Shown in pieces: positions 14,907-55,932 of a stretch of 64,000 bases of DNA. This stretch comes from a virus (Duplodnaviria > Heunggongvirae > Uroviricota > Caudoviricetes): the IMG/VR virus record IMGVR_UViG_2909314774_000001; one strand, written 5' to 3'. Under the pieces are notes generated by a model that was not told the DNA's origin, did not search any database, and saw only the letters and a list, made by a program, of their open reading frames with translations. The translations under genes and the position numbers were made by a program. The number at the start of each line of letters is the position of its first letter. The first letter of the stretch is position 1.

Positions 14907-14909
14907 AAC

Positions 14910-15434
14910 TCAAAAAGGCAAAATTCGTTCAACCCAATCGAACAAAACAACTATTTTTCTACCGTTCTCGACACGTAGTGTAACCTGACAAGCATCTGCG
15001 CCTGCTGACACCCCCTCAATTTCACGGCCATCCGCCATGTACACCCTTATAGATTTGTTTGCTTTGTAGGCTTGGTTGCAAATTGCAAAAAAATCGCGGC
15101 GTGATGGCCGATTATCGACATAATCAGGGTGAACTGTTAGTCGACCTTTGAAATCGTGAGCGATACTGTCAACCACACCTGATTCAATTGTACTAATGCG
15201 TTCAAGTGGGAGCCTTATACGATTTTCTTTGTCAAAAGGGGCTGGGCAAAGGTCAACTTTGTTACGAGATGGCATGAGGCCATAAACGTACATGCAAAAC
15301 GCCTGGCCATCTTCGAGAGTGACCCTTACAGGAATTTGTTCTCTGCGCCAGAACATCAGTAGTTTTTCAACGTTAGTGTAATCTCGCGGCCAGAGTTCAG
15401 CTTGGATACCGTAGGTAATATCTTTGGTTGTCAT
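14910..15434 (-). CDS. hypothetical protein (about 175 aa from the internal Met MTTKDITYG)
   Basis: ORF-track frame; start chosen to abut the upstream lipoprotein gene. Confidence 0.45.
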   Translation of the reverse strand: MTTKDITYGIQAELWPRDYTNVEKLLMFWRREQIPVRVTLEDGQAFCMYVYGLMPSRNKVDLCPAPFDKENRIRLPLERISTIESGVVDSIAHDFKGRLTVHPDYVDNRPSRRDFFAICNQAYKANKSIRVYMADGREIEGVSAGADACQVTLRVENGRKIVVLFDWVERILPF

Positions 15435-15438
15435 GTCA

Positions 15439-15861
15439 TCACAGAGTTGTTGGCAGAATGTCGATGTCACCAGAATTGCTGGTGAACACCCTGAATGCTT
15501 TTGTGTCTCCATTCTTCAGAGTCGTTTCTCGCTCTTGACGAGCGGGGTTTAGAGCACATAAACCTGCACCTTCAAGAGATGCACCCACAATTAATTCTCC
15601 GGCATTTAAATGGAAAGTCGCTTTTTCGCCTGTAGCCAGTTTTGCGACAGTTTCGCCGTTGATGAAAATGGAAGCATCACATCCAGCTCCTACAAAACCT
15701 GTGTCTCTCATTACCACCAACGTAGCTGGCGCTGCGCTTTGATACTTGAACACTTTGGCCTGCGGTGCTGGTTTGGCGTCATGGATTGATATTGGGCGTG
15801 ATTGGCACGCGGCAAGCATCAACACTGGTAACGTTAGTAGAGGGAGAAGCGAGTATTTCAT
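15439..15861 (-). CDS. putative lipoprotein (lipobox LMLAAC after a signal peptide)
   Basis: MKYSLLPLLTLPVLMLAACQS: leader plus Cys lipobox. Confidence 0.6.
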   Translation of the reverse strand: MKYSLLPLLTLPVLMLAACQSRPISIHDAKPAPQAKVFKYQSAAPATLVVMRDTGFVGAGCDASIFINGETVAKLATGEKATFHLNAGELIVGASLEGAGLCALNPARQERETTLKNGDTKAFRVFTSNSGDIDILPTTL

Positions 15862-15929
15862 GATAGTTTTAGAACAGAAAGTGAACAGTATGGGAGACTT
15901 CATCTTTGTCTCCCTAATTGATAGCGTGA

Positions 15930-16208
15930 TTATTTTAATCTGCTTAATAGCGTTTCGAGATCTTCCTTTGTCATATTAGAGTTCTCATAGATACGCATGA
16001 TTTTCTCACGAGTCTTAGCGGAAGCCCCGACAGAAGATATAACCTTGTCAAAGTCGGCCATTGTCAATTGTTCCAGAATGGTATTTATGACTTCAGCCTT
16101 AGACATTTTGATATTTTTTTCTTTTAGTTTCACTTGAAACTTTCCAAGTTTGTCATTGGCCTTATCAGACAATGCTACCTGACAGTAAGTTGTTTTCTTT
16201 TCACTCAT
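15930..16208 (-). CDS. hypothetical small protein (92 aa)
   Basis: ORF tightly packed between the helicase and lipoprotein genes. Confidence 0.5.
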   Translation of the reverse strand: MSEKKTTYCQVALSDKANDKLGKFQVKLKEKNIKMSKAEVINTILEQLTMADFDKVISSVGASAKTREKIMRIYENSNMTKEDLETLLSRLK

Positions 16209-16210
16209 AA

Positions 16211-17770: not shown

Positions 17771-17852
17771 AAACCTCTTTCCTTAGTGCCTTTTGTATGT
17801 TATTTGGCTATTATAATAAGTAAGTGATTACTTAGTGGATTGTAGCAATAAA

Positions 17853-18533
17853 ATGGATGTAAAAATCACGATTTTGCAGGTTGATGTTGCCAACCTTCGC
17901 CCGAATACCTGGAACACCAATTCGGTTGGTGCGCAGAATTTTGAAAAACTGAAAGGTTCTATCGAAAAATTGGGCTTTTTTAAGCCAATTTTGGCTCGTG
18001 AACTTGAAGATGGATTTTTTGAAATCCTCGGCGGCGAACATCGCTGGCGTGCTGCTATTGAGCAAGGAATTTCAACGGTTCCGGTGCTTTCTGTGGGCAA
18101 AATTAGCGATGTCGTAGCTAAACAGATGTCACTGGTGGACAACGAGCGATACGGTGAAGACGACCAAATCGCATTGCAACGCTTCATTGAAGAAATTCAG
18201 TCAGAACTTGACTATCAACTGTCTGAAATCGCCCCGTATGACGACGAAATCTCGATGGTTTTAGCAAAAGAGGCGGCAATCGACCTTGAAGCACTGGAGG
18301 CGTTGTCTCGTGGTAGTGATGAGCCTGTCGATACCGACAAACGAGAGAAAACCGAACGTGTGGGGGCGGAACATCAGACCATGCGCTTCAAAGTAACTTT
18401 CGATGCGTCAGATCGTGTTGCAGAAACCATAAAAAACATCATCAAAGAGCAGGCTATTAACACCGGTAATGAAATGGAGAACGCTGGTGAGGCTCTGGTG
18501 TGGCTGGTCGACTACTACAAGGAGCGTATGTAA
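17853..18533 (+). CDS. ParB/Srx-fold (ParB N-terminal-like) protein 1
   Basis: GGEHRWRAA motif resembling the ParB GERRWRA box; start at MDVKITIL preferred over the track start. Confidence 0.6.
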   Translation: MDVKITILQVDVANLRPNTWNTNSVGAQNFEKLKGSIEKLGFFKPILARELEDGFFEILGGEHRWRAAIEQGISTVPVLSVGKISDVVAKQMSLVDNERYGEDDQIALQRFIEEIQSELDYQLSEIAPYDDEISMVLAKEAAIDLEALEALSRGSDEPVDTDKREKTERVGAEHQTMRFKVTFDASDRVAETIKNIIKEQAINTGNEMENAGEALVWLVDYYKERM

Positions 18534-19201
18534 TGACCAAAAAGTTTGAAATCGTATATCGCGACCCGGCAGATCTTATTCCCTATGAGATGAATGCCAA
18601 AAAGCATGATGAACAGCAGATCCGAGATCTGGCCGCAGCCATTAAAAAGCGCGGATTTGACCAGCCAATTACGGTCGATAAGAACGACGTAATTATTACT
18701 GGCCACGGCCGCCGTGAGGCTGCAATTTTTGCTGGACTTGAGCGCGTGCCGGTTATTGTTCGCGATGATCTGAGTGATGACGAGGTACGTGCAAAGCGCC
18801 TTGAAGATAACCGACTTGCCAGCATTGATTACGATGCAATTAAGCTACAGAAAGAGCTTGAGTCGCTTGTTCTGGACGATATCGAGGTTTTCGGCTTCGA
18901 AGAGCGTGAGTTGAACGTTCTCGTTGGCAGTATGACAGAAGAAATGGACACCGACTCGCTAGTTATCGATCTTGGCGAAGAAACTAAACGACAGAAGGAT
19001 GAACACACCGAGATCAGTCGTGAAGTTGCAGCGGAAGAAGTACGTGTTGTCGACGTATTGGGCTTTAAAACGCTCCCTGCTGGCTCTGCCATTGTTGTTG
19101 GTGATTTGCTTGCCCATATGGAAGAAATGACGGGAGAAAGCGGGGTAGACGCATTTGTGGCATATGCGGAGAAGATCTCTTCCGGGGAGATGGCTGCATG
19201 A
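18533..19201 (+). CDS. ParB/Srx-fold (ParB N-terminal-like) protein 2
   Basis: ITGHGRREAA motif; start overlaps the previous stop (TAATG). Confidence 0.6.
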   Translation: MTKKFEIVYRDPADLIPYEMNAKKHDEQQIRDLAAAIKKRGFDQPITVDKNDVIITGHGRREAAIFAGLERVPVIVRDDLSDDEVRAKRLEDNRLASIDYDAIKLQKELESLVLDDIEVFGFEERELNVLVGSMTEEMDTDSLVIDLGEETKRQKDEHTEISREVAAEEVRVVDVLGFKTLPAGSAIVVGDLLAHMEEMTGESGVDAFVAYAEKISSGEMAA

Positions 19202-36266: not shown

Positions 36267-36602
36267 ATGGAAAGACAAACGTTTAATTGGTATCCAGATT
36301 ACGAATCTGAAAAAAGCGTAAAACCGAATGTAACGATACTTAATTTTGGTGATGACTACGAGCAGCGACAGGCTCAAGGTCTTAATCGTATTAAAGAAGA
36401 ATGGTCGTTAACCTTTACCAGATCATACAACGAAATTAATGCAATCGATGACTTCCTGACTGAGCGAGCAGGCGTTGAGTCGTTCTATTGGGTTAATCCA
36501 AGAGGAAAACGGATTGTAGTTGTATGTGACAGTCATACGGTCAAGCGATATCAGGGGTACTGTGTCTTAACTGCTACATTCAGACAAGTATTTGAGGCTT
36601 AA
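36267..36602 (+). CDS. minor tail protein (gpM-like)
   Basis: 111-aa ORF following the tape measure gene. Confidence 0.6.
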   Translation: MERQTFNWYPDYESEKSVKPNVTILNFGDDYEQRQAQGLNRIKEEWSLTFTRSYNEINAIDDFLTERAGVESFYWVNPRGKRIVVVCDSHTVKRYQGYCVLTATFRQVFEA

Positions 36603-36651: not shown

Positions 36652-37383
36652 ATGTTAGCGCCTACTTATTTCAAGGATGAAACAATGGGAATTAAAGCTG
36701 ATATTCAGAGCTTATCTCCCTCTGCACTCATTGAGTTGTTCGTACTGGATATGTCGAACACAACTTCAGGGGGGAAGCTATTCTTCCACGCCGGAACAAA
36801 CGAACTGATGCAACCGGTCGTCTGGCAAGGAGTGACATACGAGCCGTGGCCAATCAAAGCATCAGGCTTTGACAAAACTGGCCAGGGAACGTTGCCACGT
36901 CCAAAAATTCAGGTATCGAACTTTGCCGGAACTGTCTCTGCGGAAGTTCAGGCAAACGACGATCTTGTTGGCTGCCGCATTATTCGCAAGATGACACTGG
37001 CTCGCTTCCTCGATGCCGTTAATTTTAAAGACGGCAACCCAACAGCAGATCCAAACCAACATTTCCCGGATGAAATGTGGTTTATCGAACAGAAAACTCT
37101 CGAAACTCATCAGGTTGTCGAGTTTGAATTGTCCAGTGTGTTCGATTTGATGGGGGTGCAACTGCCGTATCGTCAGATCATTAAAAACACCTGCCCGTGG
37201 AAATACCGAGGGCCAGAATGCGGCTATACCGGTCCATATTTCGACAAAAATAACCAGCAGACGTCTATGTCTGGTGCGGATTACTGCACAAAACGTTATG
37301 ACGCCTGTAATGCGCGTCGGAATTATTTTGCCGACGGTGTGATCCATTTTGGCGGATTTATTGGAGCTACGCGGTATGGGTAA
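36652..37383 (+). CDS. minor tail protein (gpL-like)
   Basis: 243-aa Cys-containing ORF in the M-L-K-I-J order. Confidence 0.65.
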   Translation: MLAPTYFKDETMGIKADIQSLSPSALIELFVLDMSNTTSGGKLFFHAGTNELMQPVVWQGVTYEPWPIKASGFDKTGQGTLPRPKIQVSNFAGTVSAEVQANDDLVGCRIIRKMTLARFLDAVNFKDGNPTADPNQHFPDEMWFIEQKTLETHQVVEFELSSVFDLMGVQLPYRQIIKNTCPWKYRGPECGYTGPYFDKNNQQTSMSGADYCTKRYDACNARRNYFADGVIHFGGFIGATRYG

Positions 37384-38173
37384 TAAAGCAATCCCTGAGC
37401 TTGGCTCTGACGTTATGCAGCAAATCTATCTCTGCGCCATAAATCGCTACCCTAATGAAGCGTGTGGCTTTCTGGTTAGAACTAATGGCGACAAATATCG
37501 CTTTATGGAAGCGCGGAATGTTTCGGAGAACCCGCAGAACACTTTTGTAATGCACGTTGACGACATTATGGCGGCAGAGGATGCGGGTGATGTTATCGCA
37601 ATCTGGCATTCACATACTGATGAATCAGCAGAAGCATCTGATGCCGATCGTGCAGGCTGCGAAGCGACGGAAGTTCCGTGGATGATTCTGGCTATTCGCA
37701 AGAATGTTGAGGGAGATGCCCCTTTCCATTTTAGCGAGATGAATGTGATCACACCTGATGGTTTCGAAATGCCATACCTGGGCAGACCGTATGTATTTGG
37801 CGTATTCGATTGCTGGATGTTGTGTCGGGACTATTTGAAGCGTGAGTTTAACGTCGAACTAAACCCGAACGCACACCTGCATATTCCATCGTGGTACACC
37901 GGCGATAACGACATTCTCGATCAGAACTACCGTAACGAGGGATTGGTGCGTCTTGCGCCCGGAACAGAGCCTCAACGTGGGGACATCTTCTTTATCCAAT
38001 ACGGGAAAATGCCTGACCACTGCGCGGTTTATATCGGCGATGGAATGATTCTTCATCACCAGATCGACCGCCTTAGTTGTCGTGCTTATTACGGCGGAAT
38101 GTATCAGAAACATACGACGCATCACTTGCGTCACAGAGACTTGCTCAAGGGAGATGAGACGTGTCTGAGTTAG
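37349..38173 (+). CDS. tail assembly protein (gpK-like; JAB/MPN + NlpC/P60-like)
   Basis: JAMM-type motif IAIWHSHTDESAEASDADR and Cys/His region downstream. Confidence 0.7.
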   Translation: MADLLELRGMGNKAIPELGSDVMQQIYLCAINRYPNEACGFLVRTNGDKYRFMEARNVSENPQNTFVMHVDDIMAAEDAGDVIAIWHSHTDESAEASDADRAGCEATEVPWMILAIRKNVEGDAPFHFSEMNVITPDGFEMPYLGRPYVFGVFDCWMLCRDYLKREFNVELNPNAHLHIPSWYTGDNDILDQNYRNEGLVRLAPGTEPQRGDIFFIQYGKMPDHCAVYIGDGMILHHQIDRLSCRAYYGGMYQKHTTHHLRHRDLLKGDETCLS

Positions 38174-38754
38174 TTCATGTGCAGCTTGGCGGCCCTATGG
38201 CCAAACATTTTGGCCGCCACTGGCATCTAAAGGTGCGCAATACAAAACAGGCTCTGGATTTAATTGAGGCCAACAAGCCTGGGTTTAAAGCATGGATGAA
38301 GCGCAATATCAAAACCTATGACCGTTACCACATCCAGATCACCAATAAACAGGGCCACAAGTGGTCTGTTGACGAAAGTGAATATCAGATGATGGGGCAG
38401 TCTGACAACATTGCCAAAATCCGCATTACACCTGTTCCGCGAGGAAGCGGTGGATCTGCTTTTGGGTGGTTTCAGACGGTAGTAGGGGCCGCTTTGTTGG
38501 TTGTATCGGCGGTAGTGATGCCTGCTTTAGCACCTATCGGTTTGTCACTGATGATGGGCGGCATATCACAAATCATATCGCCGCAAGCCACTAACGAAAG
38601 TGTGAGACAGGCAGATAACTCGAACTCTTATTATTTCGACGGCCCTCAAAATACAGAAAACCAGGGCAACCCAGTACAACTTATCTATGGCGAGGAAATT
38701 CTGGTTGGCTCACAGGTTGTGAGTTCTTCAATCACGATTGACCAGCTAATGTAA
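38161..38754 (+). CDS. tail assembly protein (gpI-like)
   Basis: 197-aa ORF with hydrophobic central segment. Confidence 0.6.
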   Translation: MSELVHVQLGGPMAKHFGRHWHLKVRNTKQALDLIEANKPGFKAWMKRNIKTYDRYHIQITNKQGHKWSVDESEYQMMGQSDNIAKIRITPVPRGSGGSAFGWFQTVVGAALLVVSAVVMPALAPIGLSLMMGGISQIISPQATNESVRQADNSNSYYFDGPQNTENQGNPVQLIYGEEILVGSQVVSSSITIDQLM

Positions 38755-38766: not shown

Positions 38767-41700
38767 TTGAACATGGAACAGTTCAAGAAGAAAAAGTTAC
38801 CGCTGTTTATTGCAGGTGCGGGTGGTAAAAAAAGCAGCAAAAGCTCTAGCCGTACACCGGTTGAAGCCGACGATACCGTAAATTCTCGTGCAATGGCCGC
38901 TATCCTCGATCTTCTTGGGGAAGGTGTAATTGGCGGCTTGGTAAATGGCGCAAGATCTATTTTTGTCGACGATCTGCCGATTGTAAATGAAGACGGTTCC
39001 TCCAACTTCAGCGGAATCACATGGGATTTTCGCGACGGTTCGCAAGACCAGACTCCAATGTCTGGCTTTGATTTCGTTGAAACGCCTAAATCCGTCAATA
39101 TCCAGTTAAAAAAAACACATTATGTAACGGTTTCAATCGATAACGATGAAGCTGATCGGGTTCGTGTCATCATGAAGTTTCCTTCTTTGCGAAGCATAGA
39201 TAAAAAAACTGGTGACACGAACGGTACAACCGTTGAGTACAAGTTCCAGATAGCAAATGGCGACTCAACATTTGTAGATGTGGTCGCAGAAGGTGAAAAA
39301 AGCGTTGGCATTAAGCTAACAGCAAAGAAGACAGGTGTTTATTACCGTAGCTATGAGCTGAAGCTGCCTAAGCCTGGACGCGCGTACAAGGTTCGTGTAG
39401 TCCGTATTACCGATGATAACAGCAGCCAGTATCTCTATAACGATACATGGGTGGACTCAATAGGTGAGATTGTAGATACACCGATGAACTACCCAAACTC
39501 TGTGCTGGTGGGTCTGAAGGTTAATTCTGAGCAGTTTGGTAGCACCATGCCATCTCGTTCGTATTTGGTACGTGGATTAAAAATTCGCGTGCCGTCAAAC
39601 TACAACGAGGCCAGCAACACTTATGATGGTGTATGGGATGGCACTTTTAAGCTGTTGTCTTCTTCAAACCCCGCGTGGATTCTCTTTGATTTGCTTACCA
39701 ATGCTCGATATGGCCTTGGTCAGTATGTGTCGGAATCTATGATTGACCTCGGCCAGCTATACCAGATCGGTCGATATTGTGACGAAGAGGTTGATGATGG
39801 CTTTGGTGGTAAAGAGAAACGCTTTGCAATCAATACGCAGATCACCAGTCGACAGGACGCATACCGATTAATTCAGGATATTGCCGGTGCATTCCGCGGT
39901 ATGGTGTTTTGGGCTGGTGGCATGGTTAACATCATGCAGGATAGCCCATCAGATCCGGTAATGATGTTTACCAACTCTAACGTCAAAGATGGATTGTTTA
40001 CCTATAAAGGTTCTGCGCGTAAAGATCGCCCATCCGTTGCGCTCGTAACCTACAACAACAAGGAGGACGGTTATAAGCAAAACATCGAGTACGTTGAAGA
40101 TCAGGACGCAATGCGCCGTTATGGTGAGCGTAAGACAGAAGTCGTAGCATTTGGCTGTACAAGCCGAGGGCAGGCTCACCGAGTTGGTTTGTGGCTTTTA
40201 TATACCGCCAGAATGGAGTCGGATGTAATTACATTTACTGCCGGCTTAGACGCGTCATTTCTGATGCCTGGTGAAACCGTTCTGATTCAGAACAAATATC
40301 GCGCAGGCAAACGTAACTCAGGTCGAATTGTGGCGTTTACCAAAAACAGCGTCACACTCGATGCGCCGGTGTCGTTAGCCAAAGGCGGCTGCTTTATTCG
40401 AATACTGAATCAGGAAGGCAAAATCGTTGAACGCGATGTTCTTGAAACTGGCGAAAATATAACAAAAGTTACGTTTTCAAAATCCCTGTCTTCGGCTGAA
40501 ACGCCTGTTTTGAACGGCGTCTGGACTATTACAGAACCAGACCTCGAACCTATGCGCGTTCGCATCGTTAACATCGCGCAGGGGGAAACGCCGGGTAGCT
40601 TTGACATCACCGCTGTTGAGAACAATCCGTCTAAATATGAGGCAATCGACAATGGTGCAACGCTGATCCCGCAGAATACGACGGTATTGGACCCAACTTA
40701 CTCCAAGCCATCTAATCTGCAAATCACTGAAGGGACTTATCTCTCAAGCCCGGGCAACCTGTCAGTAAAACTGACTGCAACATGGGAAGGGAAATCTCCA
40801 GAGTATTGGATCAGTTGGCGACGTTCTGATGAAAACAATGTATCGAACTGGCAATCGGCGCGTGTAACCGAAGAGCAATACGAAATCGTTAATGTCGCGG
40901 AGAATGGACGCTACGACTTCCAACTGTATGCGGTTTCATTCAACGGTAAAAAAACAGAAATTATCAGTACCGTTTATCAGGTGCTGGGCACAATGACACC
41001 GCCGGATGCACCAACGTCATTAACGGCCGTTGGAGACTATCGTAATGTGATACTGAATTGGGTTAATCCAGATTCGGTGGACCTTGATCACATTAATGTT
41101 TACGCATCCCAGACCAACAATCTGGATACGGCGAAACTGATCGCAGAGTCTGCAAGCACCACCTTTACACATGCTGGTCTTGGGGATAGCGAAACGTGGT
41201 ATTACTGGGTTCGAGCATCGAACAAGCGAGGTATGTTAAGTCCTCCGAACTCAAACTTGGGTACAGAGGCGACAACTCGCGATGTACTGTCGTTCCTGAC
41301 TGGCAAAATTACATCTTCCGAGCTTGGTCAGGCTCTGCTTGAGGACATCAACAGCAAAGCCTCTCAAGAAGCAGTTGACGAGTTAAATGAGCATATCAAC
41401 CAGAGCGTCGAATCTTTGGAGGGGGCGGTAAACGACGTTAAGGAAGATATAGCTGAATTAGATAAGCAGTTCAGCGATAACCTCGCGGATTTTGAAATAA
41501 AATTCAACGAGCGTAGCGATGCTTTGGAGAACGCACAAACCGAGCTTAAAGGTGAGGTTTCGGCAACGATTGACAAGGTCAATGAAGCGTTTGAAAAAAT
41601 TGATGCTACTGATGCTGCAATTGTTGAAATCGAAAACACCGTATCTGAACACGATAAAGCTCTCGCTAATACAGTCGAGGCAATAAAGGCTGCAAGAGAT

Positions 41701-42048
41701 GAAGCGGCGGCTCTTATTGCTAAGGAAAGCGAGGCTCGTGTTGAAGGCGATGCTGCAAACGCTAAACAACTGGAAGTGTTGCAGTCAACGGTAGAGGAAA
41801 GCTCCGCTGCCGTTGAAGAAATGAAAAAGACGGTTGCAGAGGTCGATCGTGCCAGTGCAGAACTGACTACGAACATTGAGGCGTTAGCCAAAACAAATAT
41901 TGACCTGGCTCTTCGTCAAGATGAAGACCAGCACAAGCAGATGGTCAATAACGCGAAGATCGCAACAACACAGAAAACCTTTGCTGATGATATGTCTGCA
42001 ATGGCCACGAAGGTTGAGGAAATTCGGGTAATGACTCCAACTTACTGA
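38767..42048 (+). pseudogene. central tail fibre / host specificity protein (gpJ-like), N-terminal part truncated by IS1
   Basis: reading frame runs into the IS1 left end at 42027 and stops 7 codons inside the IS; coiled-coil region begins before the junction. Confidence 0.8.
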
Positions 42049-42545
42049 TAGTGTTTTATGTTCAGATAATGCCCGATGACTTTGTCATGCAGCTCCACCG
42101 ATTTTGAGAACGACAGTGACTTCCGTCCCAGCCTTGCCAGATGTTGTCTCAGATTCAGGTTATGTCGCTCAATGCGCTGAGTGTAACGCTTGCTGATTAC
42201 GTGCAGCTTTCCCTTCAGGCGGGATTCATACAGCGGCCAGCCATCCGTCATCCATACCACGACCTCAAAGGCCGACAGCAGGCTCAGAAGACGCTCCAGT
42301 GTGGCCAGAGTGCGTTCACCGAAGACGTGCGCCACAACCGTCCTCCGTATCCTGTCATACGCGTAAAACAGCCAGCGCTGACGTGATTTAGCACCGACGT
42401 AGCCCCACTGTTCGTCCATTTCAGCGCAGACAATCACATCACTGCCCGGCTGTATGCGCGAGGTTACCGACTGCGGCCTGAGTTTTTTAAGTGACGTAAA
42501 ATCGTGTTGAGGCCAACGCCCATAATGCGGGCGGTTGCCCGGCAT
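42042..42545 (-). CDS. insB: IS1 InsB (expressed as InsAB' by -1 frameshift)
   Basis: translation matches the IS1 InsB frame; overlaps insA in the -1 frame. Confidence 0.9.
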
Positions 42546-42739
42546 CCAACACCATTCATGGCCATATCAATGATTTTCTGGTGTGTACCGGGTTGAGAAG
42601 CGGTGTAAGTGAACTGCAGTTGCCATGTTTTACGGCAGTGAGAGCAGAGATAGCGCTGATGTCCGGCAGTACTTTTACCGTTACGCACCACGCCTTCAGT
42701 AGCTGAGCAGGAGGGACAACTGATGGAGATGGAAGCCAC
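42464..42739 (-). CDS. insA: IS1 InsA
   Basis: [40 protein letters not shown] matches IS1 InsA. Confidence 0.95.
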
Positions 42740-42794
42740 GGGAGCACCTCAAAAACACCATCATACACTAAATCAGTAAGTTGGCACCATTACC

Positions 42795-44276
42795 GAAATT
42801 CGCGTAGAAATTGGCGAAGACATTAAGGCCAGTATTCTGGAAGAGTCCACCGCTCGTGCCGATGGCGATGAAGCGTTGGCAAAGCGTGTCACTCAGCTGC
42901 AATCTAAGTTTGAAGGAGATATCAGCGCGGCGATTAGTACAGAGCAGGAGGCTCGTACATCTGCCGATGAAGCTCTGACGACACAGATCACTCAGCTTGA
43001 GTCGAAAGTAAGCAACGATATCGTCGCAGCTATTAAGGAAGAGCAAGAAGCCCGAGCAACGGAAGATTCGGCTCTGGCAAGCCAGATCACCCAACTTCAG
43101 GCAAAGGTTGATGATGATATTTCTGCTGCAATACGTAGTGAGCAGGAGGCTCGAGCAAGCGGGGACTCTGCGTTAGCCAAACAAATAAACCAGCTTCAGT
43201 CAAAGGTTGACGGTGATATATCCGCTGCCATCACTCAGGAGCAGGAGGCCAGGGCAAGTGCTGACCAGGCGCTCTCACGAGAAATTAACAGCCTGCGAGC
43301 ACAAACCGGAACTGATATTGCCGCAGCGGTTGCTGTAGAGACAAAAGCAAGGACTGATGCCGATAGTGCATTGTCTACCCAGATTACGTCTCTTACAGCA
43401 AAAGCTAATGATCTCGAGGCGTCTCTTGCCAGAGAAACAACGGCTCGTGCAGATGGTGATACCGCTTTAACAAAAGAGGTTTCAAGTTTAAAAGCACAGA
43501 CAGCGAAAGATATTAGTGCGGCCGTTGCAGTTGAAACGCAGGCTCGAACTGATGCTGACTCGGCGTTGTCGTCTCAGATCACCAAGCTGACCTCTCAATA
43601 CAAAGAGGATATTAAAGCGGCTGTAGCAACCGAAACGAAAACGCGTACAGAGCAAGATGCTGCATTGGCGACTCAAATCACAAACTTAGAGTCTCAAACG
43701 GCAGCCAACATTTCCGCGGCGGTAACAACTGAAACGACAGCGAGAACGCAGGCAGATAATGCTTTGAGTGGGCGAATCGATACTCTGAAAGCAGAGGTGG
43801 ATGGAAATACCGCGACAATTCAACAGCAGGCAACAGCTATTGCTGATACCAACAAAAAAGTGTCAACCGCGTGGACGTTGAAAATGGAAACTTCAACGAG
43901 CGGAGGGCAGAAGTATGTTGCTGGTATTGCGCTTGGTATCGACACCACTGGCCTTTCTCAGTTTTTGGTGCAGGCTGACAGGTTTGGTTTGGTCAACTCT
44001 GTTAACGGGAAGATCACAACGCCATTTGTTATCGAAAACAGTATCGCCTATATGAATGGAGCGTATATCAAGGATGGCACAATCACCAATGCAAAAGTAG
44101 GCGATCTGCAATCTACCAATTTTGTTAGCGGTAGATCTGGATGGCGGTTCGGCAAAAATGGAACGCTTGAGATCAACGGTAATAGCGGCGGCAATGGGCG
44201 ATTGGTTATAAATGGTCAGCGGATTGACGTTTATGACGATAACAACGTCTTACGAGTAAGAATTGGCCGTCTGTGA
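42795..44276 (+). pseudogene. gpJ-like host specificity protein, C-terminal part downstream of IS1
   Basis: frame is continuous with 38767 once IS1 and one TSD copy are removed (..KVEEIR|VEIGEDIKAS..); about eleven tandem 30-36 aa repeats of the SAAI..EQEARA..D.AL..QI..L type. Confidence 0.8.
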
Positions 44277-44369
44277 TGGTGGAAAAAAAATTTTATATCG
44301 GTAAAAATAGGTAAGTATTTACTTAATGGCGGGCAAGGATAGCCCGCCAAATCAAGGAGCATATTCAAC

Positions 44370-47300
44370 ATGTGGTACAGGGAAGGTACTATCACATTTA
44401 CACAGGGTAGCAATACTCTGGTTGGGGCAGGGACAGCCTGGAACGTAACAGCTAATGGTGTGTTGCCGGGGATGATCGTCATTGGCCCCGACAATAAGCT
44501 GTATGAGATCAAGCGCGTAACCAGTGATACGAACATTGTTCTCTCAGAACCTTATACCGGCGAAACTCAGTCTGAAGTTCCGTGCCGAATCATTACGACC
44601 TATGAAGGCGACTTAACACAGTTTAGCGCGCGCTTTACAGCACTAATGTCGCGTATGTCGGCTGATTCCAAGTCCATGCGCAGTTGGTTGACTGCTCTGG
44701 ATGAGGTGACAATCGAGCGTGAAGACGGTACAGAAGTGACCGTTAAGCCGCTAATGCAGATCGTCAACGAGCACAACGAAAACGTTGAGTGGTATAAAAA
44801 TAACACTGACGCGATTGATGCTGCTGGCGACAAAGCTCGTGAGGCGGCGGCCAGTGCTGCCGCAGCAGCAGAAAGCGCCAATATCGCTGGAGAAAAAGCC
44901 TCTCAAGCGTCTCAAAGTGCATCCGCTGCGGCATCCTCACAAAGTGCCGCAAGTGCGAGTGCAACTGCTGCGAAAAAATCTGAAACGAATGCTGCAGCGT
45001 CACAAAAATCTGCAGCCACTTCTGCATCCACCGCGACCACGAAAGCGTCAGAAGCTGCCACCTCAGCCAGAGATGCGTCGGCTTCAAAAGAGGCGGCAAA
45101 ATCATCAGAAACGAGCGCAGCCTCCTCGGCAACAGCGGCAGGCAATTCCGCGAAGGCGGCAAAAACGTCCGAGACGAACGCCAGGTCTTCTGAAACGGCA
45201 GCGGGACAGAGTGCCTCAGCTGCGGCAGGCTCAAAAACAGCGGCTGCGTCGTCTGCCAGTGCCGCGTCAACAAGTGCCGGGCAGGCCTCATCCAGTGCCA
45301 CCGCCGCCGGAAAATCGGCAGAAAGTGCCGCATCGTCTGCTTCAACAGCCACAACGAAGGCTGGCGAAGCCACTGAACAGGCCAGCGCAGCAGCGAGGTC
45401 TGCTTCCGCAGCGAAGACATCCGAAACGAACGCGAAAGCGTCGGAAACCCGTGCAGAATCCTCAAAAACGGCAGCCGCATCGTCCGCCAGTTCGGCAGCG
45501 TCATCGGCATCATCTGCGTCTGCTTCAAAAGATGAGGCGACCAGACAGGCGTCAGCAGCGAAGGGCAGCGCCACGACGGCATCCACGAAAGCAACAGAGG
45601 CGGCAGGCAGTGCGACGGCAGCATCTCAGAGCAAAACTGCTGCTGAATCCGCTGCGACCCGTGCGGAAGCTGCTGCTGATCGTGCTGAAGAGATTGCCGG
45701 TGCAGTTGCGATGGAAGACGCAAGCCTTACAACTAAAGGTGTTGTGAAACTTAGCAGTGCTGTCGATAGCACCAGCGAATCACTGGCTGCAACTCCAAAG
45801 GCAGTTAAAGCTGCGAATGACAATGCGAATAGCCGATTGGCGAAGAATCAGAATGGCGCTGATATCCCAGACAAGGGCCGCTTCCTGAGTAACATTAATG
45901 TTTACAGCAAAGGTGAAGTGGATAAGAAAAAGGGGATGCGAAAATACACTTTCTCTGCTCCTGCAAATGCAGTAAGCGGTAAGTGGTATCCTGTAGTCTT
46001 TCGCCGAACTGGTGGTGGCACAGATGAATTAGCCTCACGAGTGGTTATCACCACTTATTCCTCAGCTGGCGGATACGCCATGAATAATTGTGAATTTAAT
46101 GGGTTTGTTATGCCTGGCGGTTGGTCTGATCGCGGTTCATATGCGGCTGGTTTTTTCTCAATATATTCTACTGCTGAGCGAGCTATACACTCGATTATCG
46201 CAAGCGTGAAAGATGATGATTTGTGTAGTGTATTTTACGTTGAGACAAGAGCATTCCCTATCCAGATTTTTGCTGAGGAAGGATTAAATGTGATTGTTCC
46301 AACGGCTGATTATGCAGTTGGTCAAACCACTTATAAGTGGGGGGCAACTGATCCTTTATCAGAAAGTACGAATGCACAGATAATTTTGGACTTTAAAAAT
46401 GGACGAGGTTATTACTGTTCACATCCATTTATTTCAAGTCTTTCAGGAAATGCTGCTACAGCCACGAAATTGCAGACGGCAAGATCTATCGGTGGAGTTG
46501 TTTTCGACGGTTCTGCAAATATTAACCTTCCAGGTGTAAACACTACGGGTAATCAGAACACCACTGGTAATGCTGCAACTGCTACAAAACTTCAGACTGC
46601 AAGAAAAATATCCGGTGTTCCATTTGATGGTTCTACTGATATCACTTTAACCGCCGCGCATGTTGCCGCTTTCGCAAGAAGAGCAACAGGGTCATATGCT
46701 GATGCTGATGGCGGCGTGCCGTGGAATGCTGAATCTGGTGCTTATAATGTAACTAGAACGGGCGACAGTTATATTCTTGCCAACTTTTATACTGGTGTAG
46801 GTAGTTGCCGTACGCTTCAAATTAAGGCTAACTATAAAAATGGTGGGTTGTTTTATCGTTCATCTCGCGATGGCTATGGTTTTGAAAGTGGTTGGGAGCA
46901 GGTTTACACGACTGGATTTAGACCTCAGCCGGCTGATATAAACGCACCAACCGCTGCCGACGGATGGTTAAATAGTGGTAACGGAACAGCATTTACGACT
47001 GCTCAGTTTATAACGTGGCTAAATAATCAGGGTGCATTTTCAAACAAATATTGGATTGCACGGTGCTCATGGTATTACGCCAACAATAATTATATAGACG
47101 ACACTGGTTGCGGTAGGATCGATCTATCTGGTTCCGTGATTGAGGTGTTTAGTAATAAGACAACAAGCAATTACACTATTCGTGTTACAACGACAACAAC
47201 ATCGGGTCATGGTGGCGTTAATAATGCGGAATTTATTTATGTGTACAATGGCAGTGATTACTCGCCAGGCTGGCGTCGTTCTTATAATACTAGAAACAAA

Positions 47301-49655
47301 CCAACAGCTTCTGATGTAGGAGCATTATCGCTTTCTGGAGGAGCGTTAACTGGCGGATTAACTGCTGCTGGCGAGATTATTTCAAAATCGGCGAATGGTC
47401 TGCGCATTGCCTACGGAAACTACGGATTCTTTATCCGAAACGATGGTTCAAGCACATACTTCATGTTGACCGATTCGGGTAACAGCCTGGGAACCTATAA
47501 TAGTTTAAGGCCGCTTATCATTAACAATGCCAATGGTGCTGTTAGGATCGGTAATGGACTCAATGTTACTGGCGGCATCAATGGTAGTTTGAACGGTAAT
47601 GCTTCAACAGCTACGAAGTTGCAAACAGCGAGAAACATCAATGGTGTTAAGTTTGATGGTTCAGGCGATATCAATATTAATACATTGGTATCTCGTGGCC
47701 GAGTTACGGCGTTAAGCGGCTCTACTCAAGGCACTGCTGGCATTCAAATGTATGAGGCGTACAACAATAGCTACCCGACCACGTATGGCAACGTATTGCA
47801 CATGAAAGGTGCGAGTGCTGCTGGTGAGGGCGAGTTGCTTATTGGCTGGAGCGGAACGGATGGTGCTCATGCACCGGTTTATGTTCGTTCACGCCGTGAT
47901 ACTTCGACAGCGAATTGGTCTGGTTGGGCGCAGGTCTATACCACTGCTCATAAACCCACAGCGAAAGATGTTGGGGCTGCACAGACGTTTAGCGCGTCAT
48001 ACAGTACTGGGGCTGGCAACTGGACTACCGCTGAATTTATCGCATGGCTGAAGGAGCGTGGTGCTTTCGCCGTACCGTATTGGATGATGAAAGGCTCTTG
48101 GTCATATGCCGACAATAAAATTATCACTGATACAGGTGTCGGCAATATTTGTCTTGCTGGTGCGGTTATCGAGGTTTTAGGTCACGAAGGCGCAATGACC
48201 ATCCGAGTTACTACGCCTACAACGACAACCGGAGGTGGTATTGCCAGTGCTCAGTTCACCTATATTAATCACGGTAGCGCGTATGCCCCTGCCTGGCGCA
48301 GAGATTACAACACGACTCTCAAACCAACTGCGGCTGATGTTGGTGCGTTGCCGAGCGGTGGCGGCACACTTTCCGGCGCACTCACATTATCTATGGTTGC
48401 GCCGAGTGTTCAATTACGAGGGCAAGGTACTGATACCAGGCAGTACATCATGGCTTACAGAACCGATGGTGCTACATCATGGTATGTAGGTAAGGCTAAC
48501 AACGGCTCTGATAGCGCGATGCTCTGGAACTATACGGGGGCAAACGGAGTCGAGTTGGCTGCCGATGGCAATGTGCGCATTAATGCGAAGGGTAAGCAGT
48601 TTACGTTCGCAAACAACGGCAATTTGGGGCTTGTCGCTTCGTTGGATCAAAGTTCTGTTCCACAGGGCATTTACCATCAAGTTGCTATGAACTCTGGAAC
48701 CAGAGGTGCTAAATCCTATCTTCGTAAGTTCAGGGGTGGGAACGCAGATACCGTCTGGCATGAAACCGTTCAAGACGGAAATTACCGACTTGCTACTGGT
48801 GACACTGATTCTCAGGGTGAAATGTACCTTTCGACTTCGGGTTGGGTTCGTTTCCGTGGTGAAGTTGTTTCAGAATCGGCCAATGGTTTGCGAGCCGCAT
48901 TCGGTAACTTCGGTTTCTTTATCCGAAATGATGGAACGAACACTTATTTCCTTTTGACAGCTTCAGGTGACAAGTACGGTTCTTGGAATGGTTTGCGGCC
49001 TCTGACTATCAACAATGTCAGTGGCGCAGTGTCAATGAGCAACGGACTAACTGTTGCTGGTGGACTTAATGTAACGAGCGGAAACCTGAAAATCTCGACG
49101 TCCAGCACATCGTGGATCGACATGAGAGCAGGCGTAGCCCTTTCGAACTCTTCAGCTGTTTCGACGTCATCCGCTTCGGCGATAGTCCGTCAAGAACACG
49201 CCGATCGCCATTTCATTCTTGGCGGTTTGGGTAACTCGCAGTTCGGGATTTACATGATTAACAAATCTCGAACTGCGAACGGCACTGACGCTGCCGCTTA
49301 TCTCCAGAACGACGGCACTTGGGTTTGCGCAGGCAACGGTAGTTTTAATGACGTTTACATCCGTTCCGACCGCCGTAGTAAGCGCAATATTCGCAAAATT
49401 GAGCGGGCGCTCGACAAGCTGGAGCAGATCGAAGGTGTTCTCTACGAGATTCAGGTCTGTGGCCGTTATGAGCAGTCTGGTGGCCTCATCGCTCAGGATG
49501 TCCAGAATGTTCAGCCTGAACTGGTAACGGTCGACCATAACGATCAGTCAGGAGAGCCTCGTCTGCGTCTTAACTACAACGGCGTTATCGGCATGTTGGT
49601 TGAGGCTGTCAAAGAGCTGCGCGAGGAAGTGCGCGAACTGAAGGCAAAAATGTAA
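44370..49655 (+). CDS. long tail fibre protein with C-terminal intramolecular chaperone-like domain
   Basis: 1761 aa; Ala/Ser-rich N-terminal repeat region; three ATATKLQTAR motifs; internal duplicated domains; C-terminal SDRRSK...coiled-coil resembling self-cleaving chaperone domains. Confidence 0.8.
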   Translation: MWYREGTITFTQGSNTLVGAGTAWNVTANGVLPGMIVIGPDNKLYEIKRVTSDTNIVLSEPYTGETQSEVPCRIITTYEGDLTQFSARFTALMSRMSADSKSMRSWLTALDEVTIEREDGTEVTVKPLMQIVNEHNENVEWYKNNTDAIDAAGDKAREAAASAAAAAESANIAGEKASQASQSASAAASSQSAASASATAAKKSETNAAASQKSAATSASTATTKASEAATSARDASASKEAAKSSETSAASSATAAGNSAKAAKTSETNARSSETAAGQSASAAAGSKTAAASSASAASTSAGQASSSATAAGKSAESAASSASTATTKAGEATEQASAAARSASAAKTSETNAKASETRAESSKTAAASSASSAASSASSASASKDEATRQASAAKGSATTASTKATEAAGSATAASQSKTAAESAATRAEAAADRAEEIAGAVAMEDASLTTKGVVKLSSAVDSTSESLAATPKAVKAANDNANSRLAKNQNGADIPDKGRFLSNINVYSKGEVDKKKGMRKYTFSAPANAVSGKWYPVVFRRTGGGTDELASRVVITTYSSAGGYAMNNCEFNGFVMPGGWSDRGSYAAGFFSIYSTAERAIHSIIASVKDDDLCSVFYVETRAFPIQIFAEEGLNVIVPTADYAVGQTTYKWGATDPLSESTNAQIILDFKNGRGYYCSHPFISSLSGNAATATKLQTARSIGGVVFDGSANINLPGVNTTGNQNTTGNAATATKLQTARKISGVPFDGSTDITLTAAHVAAFARRATGSYADADGGVPWNAESGAYNVTRTGDSYILANFYTGVGSCRTLQIKANYKNGGLFYRSSRDGYGFESGWEQVYTTGFRPQPADINAPTAADGWLNSGNGTAFTTAQFITWLNNQGAFSNKYWIARCSWYYANNNYIDDTGCGRIDLSGSVIEVFSNKTTSNYTIRVTTTTTSGHGGVNNAEFIYVYNGSDYSPGWRRSYNTRNKPTASDVGALSLSGGALTGGLTAAGEIISKSANGLRIAYGNYGFFIRNDGSSTYFMLTDSGNSLGTYNSLRPLIINNANGAVRIGNGLNVTGGINGSLNGNASTATKLQTARNINGVKFDGSGDININTLVSRGRVTALSGSTQGTAGIQMYEAYNNSYPTTYGNVLHMKGASAAGEGELLIGWSGTDGAHAPVYVRSRRDTSTANWSGWAQVYTTAHKPTAKDVGAAQTFSASYSTGAGNWTTAEFIAWLKERGAFAVPYWMMKGSWSYADNKIITDTGVGNICLAGAVIEVLGHEGAMTIRVTTPTTTTGGGIASAQFTYINHGSAYAPAWRRDYNTTLKPTAADVGALPSGGGTLSGALTLSMVAPSVQLRGQGTDTRQYIMAYRTDGATSWYVGKANNGSDSAMLWNYTGANGVELAADGNVRINAKGKQFTFANNGNLGLVASLDQSSVPQGIYHQVAMNSGTRGAKSYLRKFRGGNADTVWHETVQDGNYRLATGDTDSQGEMYLSTSGWVRFRGEVVSESANGLRAAFGNFGFFIRNDGTNTYFLLTASGDKYGSWNGLRPLTINNVSGAVSMSNGLTVAGGLNVTSGNLKISTSSTSWIDMRAGVALSNSSAVSTSSASAIVRQEHADRHFILGGLGNSQFGIYMINKSRTANGTDAAAYLQNDGTWVCAGNGSFNDVYIRSDRRSKRNIRKIERALDKLEQIEGVLYEIQVCGRYEQSGGLIAQDVQNVQPELVTVDHNDQSGEPRLRLNYNGVIGMLVEAVKELREEVRELKAKM

Positions 49656-49721
49656 TCAAGGTGAATGGTGAGGGGCCACCCTCACCAATTCAGGATATTC
49701 ACATCAAAAAGGAGATTAGAT

Positions 49722-50504
49722 GTGCCAATTGTCGGTGTTCCCGGTTGGATTGGGTCTTCGGCTGTCAGTGTGACAGGCCAGAGATGGATGAGTGCGGCTC
49801 GAACGGCGGTGCAACTGCCAGCGGCTGGTTCAATGTCTCAAATGGCCGGGCGATCTAAAGAAGTTCAGTACAGCATCGGTGCGAATCATAACTACAACAA
49901 AGACACACTGATCAACTATTTAAAATCCCAGGGGGCGACGCCAGTCGTTGTTACCATTACAGGGGATCTGGTGTCGTCCAGTAGCGGCGTGCCATGTTTA
50001 GATTTCCCGAGTTCACTTACCAACTCTTATATCAGCCTTGTAATCAACGCAGGTGTGACTGTCTATGGACGCGGTGGCAATGGTGGTAGTAACGCTGCCG
50101 GTGCTGCTGGTGGTAACGCAATTAATAATGGCATCGGTACACGCTTGCGTATTACGAATAATGGTGCAATCGCTGGAGGTGGCGGCGGCGGTGGCGGCGG
50201 TAACAGGGGTAAACTAATATTTGGTGGTGGCGGTGGTCGCCCATTCGGTGCTGGTGGGTCTTCCTCTCATATGAGTTCCGGTGCAACTGCTGGTACTATT
50301 TCCGCTCCTGGTAAAGGATCTGTTGGTGAGGGGTCTCTTAGTGCATATACAGGCGGTTCGGGTGGTAATGTCGGTGCTGCTGGAGGAAGATGTAATACTC
50401 AAGGTAACGGTACAGAATATAACGGCGGAGCAGCTGGTAAAGCCGTAACTGGCAACGCGCCTACATGGACTAAAGCTGGGGCAATTTACGGCGCTCATGT
50501 GTAA
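49722..50504 (+). CDS. glycine-rich tail-fibre-associated protein (possible adhesin or assembly factor)
   Basis: poly-Gly tracts (GGGGGGGGGN, GGGGGRPFGAGG); GTG start at 49722 after RBS AAAAAGGAG. Confidence 0.5.
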   Translation: MPIVGVPGWIGSSAVSVTGQRWMSAARTAVQLPAAGSMSQMAGRSKEVQYSIGANHNYNKDTLINYLKSQGATPVVVTITGDLVSSSSGVPCLDFPSSLTNSYISLVINAGVTVYGRGGNGGSNAAGAAGGNAINNGIGTRLRITNNGAIAGGGGGGGGGNRGKLIFGGGGGRPFGAGGSSSHMSSGATAGTISAPGKGSVGEGSLSAYTGGSGGNVGAAGGRCNTQGNGTEYNGGAAGKAVTGNAPTWTKAGAIYGAHV

Positions 50505-52029: not shown

Positions 52030-52551
52030 TTATTCTTCGAACAATTTTTCGATAGATTTTGTAGGATAGAACAAAGAACGCTCGTTGTTACCAACCAGCT
52101 GGATAAAGCCTAAACTTTTATAAAACGCCTTGGCTTTGTCATTTAACGCCTCAACGAAAAGTCCATGAATGCCTACAGCAAGAGATGCATTGTACACAAC
52201 GCGCATTGCATGTGTTACAAGCATTGAGCCAAATCCTTGACCTTGAAGGGACTTGTCCAAAGCCAGCCTACCCAAAGTAACACTTGGAACATTCCGATAA
52301 GGAACCTTCTTTTGTTTGCTTCTTGAAGGTAAGGACTCCTTTTCAAAACAACTACCTGACAAAGTGTAATATCCTAACACTTTTGGCCTTTCTTCTTGAG
52401 TGCAAAGCACATAAGCACGAAGAATTTTTCCCTCATGCTGCCTTTTTAAGTGGTTGGCTAAAAAGGCGTTTAGTGACTCTTCGCCGCAATCAAAACCGTT
52501 TAGATCATAATCTTTCTCTCCAGAGAAAATCTCTATCGTTGTATTGCTCAC
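52030..52551 (-). CDS. GNAT-family acetyltransferase toxin (TacT/AtaT/KacT-like)
   Basis: GNAT motif LQGQGFGSMLV; immediately downstream of a DUF1778-type antitoxin-like gene. Confidence 0.75.
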   Translation of the reverse strand: MSNTTIEIFSGEKDYDLNGFDCGEESLNAFLANHLKRQHEGKILRAYVLCTQEERPKVLGYYTLSGSCFEKESLPSRSKQKKVPYRNVPSVTLGRLALDKSLQGQGFGSMLVTHAMRVVYNASLAVGIHGLFVEALNDKAKAFYKSLGFIQLVGNNERSLFYPTKSIEKLFEE

Positions 52552-52558
52552 GAGTAAA

Positions 52559-52828
52559 CTACTCCATGCTTTTCAGACGATCAGCAGCTCGTTTCAGCTT
52601 GTCGTTCGGTGCCGGAGGATTGCTTATAGCGTCCATAACCAGATTCCAGGATTCTTCATTCAGAACTAGTCTACGGTGTTGCTCTATAACTTTCACGGCA
52701 CGTTCAGATGCACTGCTAACCATAAACTGAGTAATGCTCTGGTTAGACATTGCGGCAGCTTCCTCGATGATGCTTTTATCGTCATCGGTTAATCTCAAAT
52801 CGATGCGCTGCTTTTTTAGTGCTGACAT
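52559..52828 (-). CDS. DUF1778-type RHH antitoxin (TacA/AtaR/KacA-like)
   Basis: about 90-aa ORF (start MSALKKQRIDLRL) 8 bp upstream of the GNAT gene. Confidence 0.7.
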   Translation of the reverse strand: MSALKKQRIDLRLTDDDKSIIEEAAAMSNQSITQFMVSSASERAVKVIEQHRRLVLNEESWNLVMDAISNPPAPNDKLKRAADRLKSME

Positions 52829-54225: not shown

Positions 54226-55932
54226 ATGGAATCGATAGAAGTATTTTTAAAAAATTTTTTGGACTCAGATCATCGGGTTGCTGTCATAAAAGGAAATTGG
54301 GGAGTAGGTAAAACGCATTATTGGAATAGCTTTTATACTAAACATTCTAAAAAATTAGATTTTAATGCATATTCATATGTTTCTTTGTTTGGAATAAATT
54401 CTATTGGAGACATTAAAAAAGCTCTTTATCATTGTGCCACACCAATTAATGAAAAGAAATATAAAGAACTGATTTTATCTGAAACGGATCGAACTATGAT
54501 TCGTTATAGAAATGGGTTTTGGGGATGGTTGAAATACAACTCCTTGTCAAAATTTTTAATACATTTTGGAAAGAACGATTTTTTTGGGTTCAAAACTGAT
54601 AATCTGCTGTCATCTCTTGAGTATAAATTTGTTAATAATTATTTGGTTTGCATTGATGATATTGAACGAAAAGGTAGTGCGCTAGAAATTAAAGAGATTA
54701 TGGGGGTAATTGATGAGTTGGCAAGAAGAAAAAATTGCAAGGTTGTTCTAATATTAAATGAAGATAACTTACATGAAGAAACTGCACAACAACAGTTTTT
54801 AGAGTATAGAGAAAAAATAATTGATGTGGAAATAAAATACGATCCCACGCCTGAGAAAAACTTAAGAAAAGTTTTTTATGAGACTGACCCTGATTTTCTT
54901 TTGTTAAAAAACCTAGTAAATGATTTAAACATCAAAAACATTAGAATATTAAATAAAATAAAATCATCTCTAGTTATATTTAGAGATGTGCTAAAGTTAG
55001 CAGAGGATAAGGTTAGAGAAAGTTTTATTAATAGATTGGTCTTATTTTCAGTGGTTTACTATTTTGGTGTTCCTAGCGTTGATTATGCTTCATTTAAGGA
55101 GTCAATCAAAAATATACATGCATTCGACTATATGTTAGATGATAAAGATGAAAAGGAAGAAGTTAACTCTGTATATTCATTTGTTAATAGCCTTGATGTT
55201 ATTTATGAACGAGCAGAAAGTGCTTTCGATGATGATATAGATTTTTACCTTAAGAACGGTTATGTTTCTTCTGAAAGCAATATTCTAAATATAATAAAAG
55301 AAAAAAATGAACAATATAGAGATAATAGGGTTTTATGTGAGGTTTATAAAATTTGGGATGTTTTTAGAAACTCTTTTAAAGATAATGAATCAGAGTTTAT
55401 TTTTCAAATTGAGCGCGTAATTAACGATAGTCTGTTGCGTATACCAATTGGACAGTTCGTAGGTTTAATAAATGTCCTAATTAAATTGGATAGAGATTGT
55501 AATAATATTATAGAGGCATATGCAGATGCTTTTGTTAATAAAGAAAATGCGTATGCTACATTTAATTCTTTGCGAGTAGAGATCTTCGGAAATGAAGAAT
55601 TAGGTTTCAGAATTGAAAAAAAATTGAAAGATAGAAATCCAGATGACTATAACTTAGATAAAATTATAAAAAAAATAGCTGGTGGAAGATTTAACCATAG
55701 TGATGTGAATATTCTTAACAGTTTTTCTAAAGATGATTACGTAAACTGGATATTATCCTGTGATCAGGATGCTTTGAATTTAGTAGAAGAGACTATGCTC
55801 AAGTTCAAGGGTATGCAACACCCGACAGACGAACAGAAGAGCATCACTGATAAAGCAATAGAAGCTTTGGAGGAAGTTGCTTCAAAATCAACACTTAATA
55901 AGCTGCGTGTTAATAAAATACTCAATCATTAA
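54226..55932 (+). CDS. KAP-family P-loop NTPase
   Basis: Walker A GNWGVGKTHYW (the G.WG.GK(S/T) form typical of KAP NTPases), Walker B LVCIDDIER; strongly AT-rich gene. Confidence 0.75.
   Translation: MESIEVFLKNFLDSDHRVAVIKGNWGVGKTHYWNSFYTKHSKKLDFNAYSYVSLFGINSIGDIKKALYHCATPINEKKYKELILSETDRTMIRYRNGFWGWLKYNSLSKFLIHFGKNDFFGFKTDNLLSSLEYKFVNNYLVCIDDIERKGSALEIKEIMGVIDELARRKNCKVVLILNEDNLHEETAQQQFLEYREKIIDVEIKYDPTPEKNLRKVFYETDPDFLLLKNLVNDLNIKNIRILNKIKSSLVIFRDVLKLAEDKVRESFINRLVLFSVVYYFGVPSVDYASFKESIKNIHAFDYMLDDKDEKEEVNSVYSFVNSLDVIYERAESAFDDDIDFYLKNGYVSSESNILNIIKEKNEQYRDNRVLCEVYKIWDVFRNSFKDNESEFIFQIERVINDSLLRIPIGQFVGLINVLIKLDRDCNNIIEAYADAFVNKENAYATFNSLRVEIFGNEELGFRIEKKLKDRNPDDYNLDKIIKKIAGGRFNHSDVNILNSFSKDDYVNWILSCDQDALNLVEETMLKFKGMQHPTDEQKSITDKAIEALEEVASKSTLNKLRVNKILNH

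Follow-up and report, generated by a model that had tools for sequence, protein, structure and literature searches.

The J protein is essential in lambda-type tails. Phage lambda gpJ consists of hub domains, two fibronectin type III (FNIII) domains, a short α-helical shaft (residues 809-861), a β-prism central straight fibre and an Ig-like receptor-binding domain; the signal of receptor contact reaches the hub, and opens it, by way of the shaft, the straight fibre and the receptor-binding domain (PMC11101478). In Escherichia coli, elements of ~107-108 kb that are IncFIB and carry apbC have been described as SSU5-supergroup phage-plasmids of the pSLy3 group (PMC7969092, PMC12429562), and inserted transposases are known to inactivate genes of phage-plasmids, whose gene loss can yield plain plasmids (PMC10879196). 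The insertion sequence (IS) IS1 has a published length of 768 bp and produces a target duplication of 8 or 9 bp (PMC12428005). Here we analysed a stretch of 64,000 nucleotides of a tailed virus (Caudoviricetes; IMG/VR record IMGVR_UViG_2909314774_000001), denoted below as the window, in which the J gene of such a phage-plasmid is split by IS1. We consider it very probable that a single recent IS1 hit has left the element with a J that lacks its distal fibre part, so that its particles are non-infectious and it is inherited vertically as a plasmid.

Sequence comparison points to a host element of ~110 kb, an IncFIB phage-plasmid that belongs to the SSU5 supergroup and, as it appears, to the pSLy3 group, where the latter placement follows published descriptions of similar E. 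coli elements rather than a typing tool. A preliminary description of the locus, made from the letters alone, had called the element a prophage. However, each of the 239 J matches in complete E. coli genomes is plasmid-borne and none is chromosomal, by which an integrated prophage was ruled out and the term corrected to extrachromosomal phage-plasmid. The window is colinear with pF404-2 (NZ_OY754366.1), a 106-kb circular non-mobilizable IncFIB plasmid, from ~82.1 kb down to ~20.1 kb of the latter at 88-99% nucleotide identity, except for a few replaced or inserted stretches.

IS1 and its target duplication within the J gene

The J gene is interrupted by one complete IS1, which lies antisense to J and is the only copy in the window. 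The element and its surroundings comprise the following features:

42027-42794, minus strand, complete IS1 of 768 bp with imperfect terminal inverted repeats
42019-42026, left copy of the target-site duplication, GAAATTCG, from sequence reading and a script
42795-42802, right copy of the target-site duplication, GAAATTCG, from sequence reading and a script
42464-42739, minus strand, insA, 91 amino acids, GTG start
42042-42545, minus strand, insB reading frame, 167 amino acids
42490-42482, minus strand, programmed -1 frameshift motif of IS1, TTAAAAAAC (A6C type), as read on the minus strand
42760-42787, minus strand, promoter-like site (a sigma-70-like match) at the insA-proximal end of IS1, facing inward to insA

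An intact 768-bp IS1 with insA and insB on the minus strand, bracketed on both sides by an identical 8-bp repeat, had been proposed in the preliminary description, and sequence and script agree on both points. The element starts with GGTAATGACTCC and ends with GGCACCATTACC, and its inverted ends both begin with GGTAATG and agree at 23 of the 30 outermost bases. In comparison with the NCBIfam model transpos_IS1, insB scored over the cut-off (E = 4e-43, 147.7 bits), whereas insA scored under the 100-bit cut-off (E = 8e-26, 91.2 bits) because it represents only the short first frame. Annotated IS1 copies from several E. coli genomes match all 768 bp at 100% identity. As such, length, inverted ends, insA/insB' frames, A6C motif, target duplication and identity are all those of the IS1 family.

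For IS1, a duplication of 9 bp is commoner than one of 8 bp. Here the adjoining bases mismatch on both sides (G vs C on the left and G vs C on the right), so that a 9-bp duplication was ruled out and the duplication is 8 bp long. Considering that an 8-bp match at two fixed positions has a probability of ~1.5e-5 and that empty-site alleles exist, chance is excluded as its origin. A composite transposon was ruled out as well, since the window holds a single IS1 copy and the duplication brackets that very copy. True transposition is recognised by just this combination, a complete IS1 with a perfect 8-bp duplication on its two sides. The anatomy, one copy within a coding sequence, is the same as in the (polar) inactivation of genes by IS1 in E. 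coli and Shigella; there is no difference in kind, and only the target is particular.

The restored J gene and its uninterrupted alleles

When IS1 and one copy of the repeat were excised in silico, a single open frame of 1577 codons from TTG 38767, or 1575 codons from ATG 38773, was obtained with the junction ..KVEEIR|VEIGEDIKAS.., close to the ~1570 codons estimated beforehand. The corresponding empty site, GAGGAAATTCGCGTAG, occurs exactly once in pF404-2, whose homologue is annotated as one 4728-nt "phage tail protein" and has the length of the restored gene. A 1000-bp restored junction is present in one piece at 99% identity or more in at least 121 PLSDB plasmids, and 161 complete E. coli genomes contain a match that covers 80% or more of the restored 4728-nt gene, the best of them at 99.6% identity. 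The restored gene is also colinear with uninterrupted "TipJ family tail tip" genes of many E. coli plasmids at 99.4-99.6% identity, the closest intact allele being the J of NZ_CP117972.1 (99.6%).

These alleles bear directly on whether the two frames are naturally separate genes, which the preliminary description had named as the finding that would speak against it, or whether the IS1 junctions are an artefact of assembly. Relatives were checked on this point and carry one continuous 4728-nt gene, a perfect 8-bp duplication brackets the complete IS1, and in RefSeq an analogous J split by IS100 is annotated as two pseudogene halves. Nothing was found in favour of separate genes or of an artefact, both of which are refuted by the excision, the empty site and the continuous alleles, and the probability left to them is practically negligible.

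The interrupted form seems to be young. Compared with two intact alleles, the restored J differs at 20 and 28 nt without any stop or frameshift, and the changed codons are synonymous in 19 and 26 cases and nonsynonymous in 1 and 2. Undecayed halves, a perfect duplication and an IS1 that equals live copies in sequence all show that the insertion is recent. When the interrupted locus was searched by BLAST, this IS1-J insertion was found in none of the complete E. coli genomes and in none of the PLSDB plasmids, and an exact search found the left IS1-J junction in neither the GTDB species representatives nor the JGI metagenomes; absence from these four collections was counted toward recency. The earlier claim of a recent inactivation is thus borne out by J halves that differ from intact alleles almost only synonymously, but the "domestication" offered along with it is not, as nothing shows a benefit to the host.

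The perfect duplication and the undamaged halves also mean that precise excision would give a wild-type gene. We therefore weighed whether the population is mixed, with IS1 in some plasmid copies or cells only, or whether J is regained by precise excision between the 8-bp repeats so often that the phage-plasmid stays functional at the population level, and we judge this highly improbable. The assembly shows the interrupted form only, and precise excision of an IS across short repeats is rare, as textbooks have it. In addition, large phage-plasmids of such a kind have been reported at about one copy per cell (PMC12429562).

The two fragments of J and their domains

The J gene lies after M-, L-, K- and I-like genes and downstream of the tape-measure gene. 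Its fragments, given by position in the window, and the domains of the restored protein, given by residue, are as follows:

38773-42048, plus strand, N-terminal J fragment, 1091 amino acids, with FNIII-A_GpJ, Phage-tail_3, fn3 and the first 225 shaft residues
42795-44276, plus strand, orphaned C-terminal J fragment, residues ~1084-1575, with about ten 33-residue helical repeats and Phage_Tail_Tip (PF09327)
residues 102-236, FNIII-A_GpJ (Pfam, E = 1.5e-29)
residues 358-521, Phage-tail_3 (Pfam, E = 7e-34)
residues 745-824, fn3 (Pfam)
residues ~18-861, region aligned to lambda gpJ 3-837 (E = 9.5e-124)
residues 861-1418, Ala/Glu-rich helical stretch of ~560 residues
residues ~1090-1430, second part of the helical stretch, about ten copies of a 33-residue repeat, all downstream of IS1
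residues 1423-1557, Phage_Tail_Tip PF09327 (Pfam, E = 1.4e-41), wholly in the orphaned fragment
residues 1419-1555, region aligned to lambda gpJ 839-971

In a translated comparison with the intact protein, residues 1-1086 aligned at 38773-42030 and residues 1081-1575 at 42789-44273. The N-terminal product is in register with the intact protein over residues 1-1086 and then continues as MTPTY up to a TGA at 42046-42048, 22 nt into IS1, which agrees with the earlier reading that it ends 7 codons into the element. J is split after codon 1085 of 1575, within the helical shaft and directly ahead of the repeat array, and the truncated protein loses 489 distal residues, namely the shaft of 33-residue repeats together with the terminal domain of the fibre.

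As far as the sequence tells, the C-terminal fragment has no credible translation start. Its frame is shut by a stop inside IS1, and no ATG, GTG or TTG precedes TTG 42876, whose predicted pairing with the 3' end of 16S rRNA is weak at -2.1 kcal/mol, in contrast with -5.2 to -8.7 for the real starts in the module. Since all internal candidates share such weak Shine-Dalgarno pairing, independent translation of the fragment was rejected, in line with the preliminary description, which had denied it a start of its own. We further scanned 41800-44600 for promoters, and the only sigma-70-like match was the minus-strand site at 42760-42787 within IS1; on the plus strand, no promoter-like site was present from IS1 up to the fibre gene. 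Expression of the long fibre and the adhesin downstream thus probably relies on read-through.

Comparing this J with lambda gpJ (PDB 8iyk, 8xcj), the two share the gene order M-L-K-I-J, a homologous hub/FNIII part and the central-straight-fibre domain. The shaft, however, comprises ~560 residues in this J and only ~50 in lambda gpJ (809-861, PMC11101478). No alignment of this J to lambda gpJ 972-1132, the Ig-like LamB-binding domain, was obtained, and the protein ends ~20 residues past the straight-fibre domain. Its scores against the NCBIfam models lambda_TipJ (493, cut-off 1950) and attach_TipJ_rel (92.7, cut-off 140) are both below the cut-offs. By these sequence comparisons, this J is to be regarded as a member of the TipJ/gpJ family and not as the equivalent of lambda J. 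The earlier label of a gpJ-like host-specificity gene is appropriate insofar as the gene is of the TipJ/gpJ type, whereas the lost C-terminus is not a receptor-binding domain of the lambda type; presumably it is this C-terminus that would bind the receptor.

The best full-length matches among solved structures are PDB 9l9p_S, a putative tail fiber protein, and the F2-pyocin tail fibre (PDB 25vf_A), with E = 7e-132 and 2e-154, respectively. Both share with this J the C-terminal design of helical repeats followed by a terminal domain, which ends in ..LRVQIGRL in 9l9p_S and in ..LRVRIGRL in this J. They differ from it in having ~1170-1200 residues and a shorter shaft, and one of them comes from a bacteriocin, not a phage.

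The tandem-repeat region mentioned in the preliminary description was confirmed at the protein level with a period of 33 residues. Tandem Repeats Finder detected no DNA-level tandem repeats on 38767-50000, because the repeats are too diverged at the DNA level. Some sister J genes are 4629 or 4626 nt long compared with 4728 nt, each aligning as two pieces, and the shortfall of ~99-102 nt, roughly one 33-residue repeat, suggests that shaft repeats vary in copy number. Many sister plasmids share just the first ~2580-2608 nt of J, ~55% of the gene, which places a recombination boundary at about residue 860. The shaft and tip of J, as the sequences suggest, may represent an exchangeable specificity module.

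Neighbouring structural genes and tail fibres

To examine the state of the other genes, every annotated pF404-2 gene was compared in translation with the window. J is the sole split gene of the structural set in the window. The small and large terminase, portal, major capsid, tail tube and tape measure (1523 amino acids) are full length at 99-100% amino acid identity to pF404-2, and so are the M-, L-, K- and I-like tail-tip genes. The genes on either side of J are intact:

36267-36602, plus strand, M-like gene
36685-37383, plus strand, L-like gene
37376-38173, plus strand, K-like C40 peptidase
38161-38754, plus strand, I-like gene
44370-49655, plus strand, long tail fibre, 1761 amino acids in one open frame
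49722-50504, plus strand, T-even-type, Gp38-type adhesin (PF05268, E = 4e-70)

The long tail fibre has three Gp34_trimer matches, one gp37_trimer match and a Peptidase_S74 chaperone domain, and its middle part at ~45.9-47.6 kb is diverged from the reference. The element is thus a siphovirus-like phage-plasmid that has a T2-style fibre-tip adhesin besides the J central fibre. In pF404-2, the fibre frame (14068-19104 of locus L001) is open over 1678 amino acids, but RefSeq annotates only 1226 amino acids and has a 'hypothetical protein' on the opposite strand within it, probably in error.

Probable consequences of the insertion

Considering the anatomy above, we propose that an IS1 copy from another site of the host genome jumped into the J of the SSU5-supergroup phage-plasmid and made the 8-bp duplication. 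The 1091-residue product would retain the domains by which the tail tip is built and closed, namely the hub and the fibronectin domains. The distal 489 residues would no longer be translated, as they lack a start codon preceded by a ribosome-binding site. Since IS1 is classically polar, transcription of the downstream fibre and adhesin genes may also drop, provided that they are co-transcribed with J. After induction, the particles would have tails without a functional central fibre and would fail at adsorption or at the triggering of DNA ejection, and the element would survive solely by vertical inheritance as a plasmid until it loses IS1 or has its J exchanged. The tails may be put together lacking a functional central fibre, or may not mature at all; in both cases the particles would be non-infectious. 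By analogy with lambda, the defect is likely the loss of the central fibre, and hence of adsorption and triggering, rather than failed tail building. The earlier term "tail-defective" is right in that J is disrupted, but it is too broad, as the hub/FNIII part that aligns to lambda gpJ is retained.

This retention allows a different outcome to be imagined, in which the insertion is real and infectivity is kept, with the truncated J forming the tip and the side fibre and Gp38-type adhesin serving for adsorption, perhaps with an altered host range. The truncated J does retain all residues homologous to the lambda hub/FNIII region, and the long fibre and the adhesin downstream are intact. Nevertheless, we regard kept infectivity as very unlikely. 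The side fibres of lambda-type tails, Stf in lambda, only accelerate adsorption according to textbook knowledge, and polarity of IS1 may reduce the expression of the fibre and adhesin genes as well. Furthermore, the distal part of J is under selection, because the 161 complete E. coli genomes keep J at full length and the changes are almost all synonymous. In lambda-type tails, it is the central fibre that passes on the receptor signal by which the hub is opened (PMC11101478).

Several points weigh against a loss of infectivity caused by this insertion. A J truncated in the shaft might still assemble, and the intact side fibre and Gp38-type adhesin might allow residual infectivity. The single assembled sequence may be compatible with IS1-free plasmid copies in the same cell population, and other needed functions are possibly encoded outside the window. 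In addition, an E. coli SSU5-like element of unstated subgroup gave no virion DNA after mitomycin C (PMC9600943), which makes the baseline activity of the lineage uncertain.

The host phage-plasmid and its cargo

The window represents ~60% of the element. Relatives are typed IncFIB, and ParB-like and ParA-like genes are within the window; the replication gene, repA, lies beyond it. The cargo of metG and apbC is common to the window and the pSLy3-group elements pF404-2 and Escherichia phage CMS-2020a (CP053388.1), from which the window differs by IS1 in J, by other genes in several variable slots and by the diverged middle of the long fibre. The genes that were noted besides the structural set are listed below:

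2594-3694, minus strand, apbC, as reported for related E. coli phage-plasmids
~3852-5885, plus strand, metG, likewise reported for related E. coli phage-plasmids
6478-7707, plus strand, open reading frame of 409 amino acids, within a 1.4-kb stretch (6337-7720) that has no counterpart in pF404-2
14910-15512, minus strand, 'Repressor of phase-1 flagellin' match (FljA-like, PF03614, E = 2e-84)
52033-52828, minus strand, toxin-antitoxin pair of a DUF1778 antitoxin and a GNAT acetyltransferase toxin
54226-55932, plus strand, KAP-family P-loop NTPase of 568 amino acids
63637-63883, plus strand, cluster of three tRNA genes, Asn-GTT, Tyr-GTA and Thr-TGT

The proteins of the DUF1778/GNAT pair are 100% identical to those of pF404-2, and the pair could stabilise the plasmid even if phage functions are lost. 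The KAP-family NTPase matches the PADLOC candidate defence family PDC-S49 (E = 1.6e-21), and its gene occupies a variable slot next to the parA-like gene, where pF404-2 has a different gene. The FljA-like gene is 78% identical to the pF404-2 copy, whose annotation says no more than transcriptional regulator; if carried on a plasmid, a repressor of flagellin could alter the motility or the H antigen of the host. The 409-amino-acid reading frame gave no Pfam match and no meaningful PADLOC match.

Recurrent insertions in tail genes and their meaning

Insertions in tail genes recur among the sister plasmids. In NZ_JBWDPU010000001.1 (positions 1501-8187 of locus L006), IS100 splits J at about codon 796, leaving the two pseudogene halves of RefSeq, and in NZ_CP117972.1 (positions 7654-13538 of locus L005) an IS3-family element lies in the tape-measure gene. 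Together with IS1 in the present J, three hits are found among close relatives, and they are independent events since the insertion sequences, the positions and the plasmids all differ. A large survey described ISEc9 with blaCTX-M-15 inserted at varied sites of SSU5-group elements, avoiding structural genes (bioRxiv 10.1101/2025.09.12.675607).

We asked ourselves whether hits in the tail module are a recurrent and selected route from phage-plasmid to plain cargo plasmid, of which the present copy would be the very first step; this seems unlikely to us, the three independent hits notwithstanding. If it were true, the resulting cargo plasmids would carry metG, apbC, the toxin-antitoxin pair and the candidate defence genes. 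The insertion itself is an ordinary event of an already known kind, an IS1 knockout in which both the gene and the class of element are known.

Taken all together, the element is best annotated as a phage-plasmid with a pseudogenised J, not as an intact prophage or a plain "cryptic plasmid", and horizontal spread of this plasmid by infection is not to be assumed. As the other structural genes are untouched, the strain would be suited to a complementation study of the repeat shaft and the terminal domain. The locus is a clean example of the early decay of a phage-plasmid toward a plasmid, a process that has already been described in general terms (PMC10879196).

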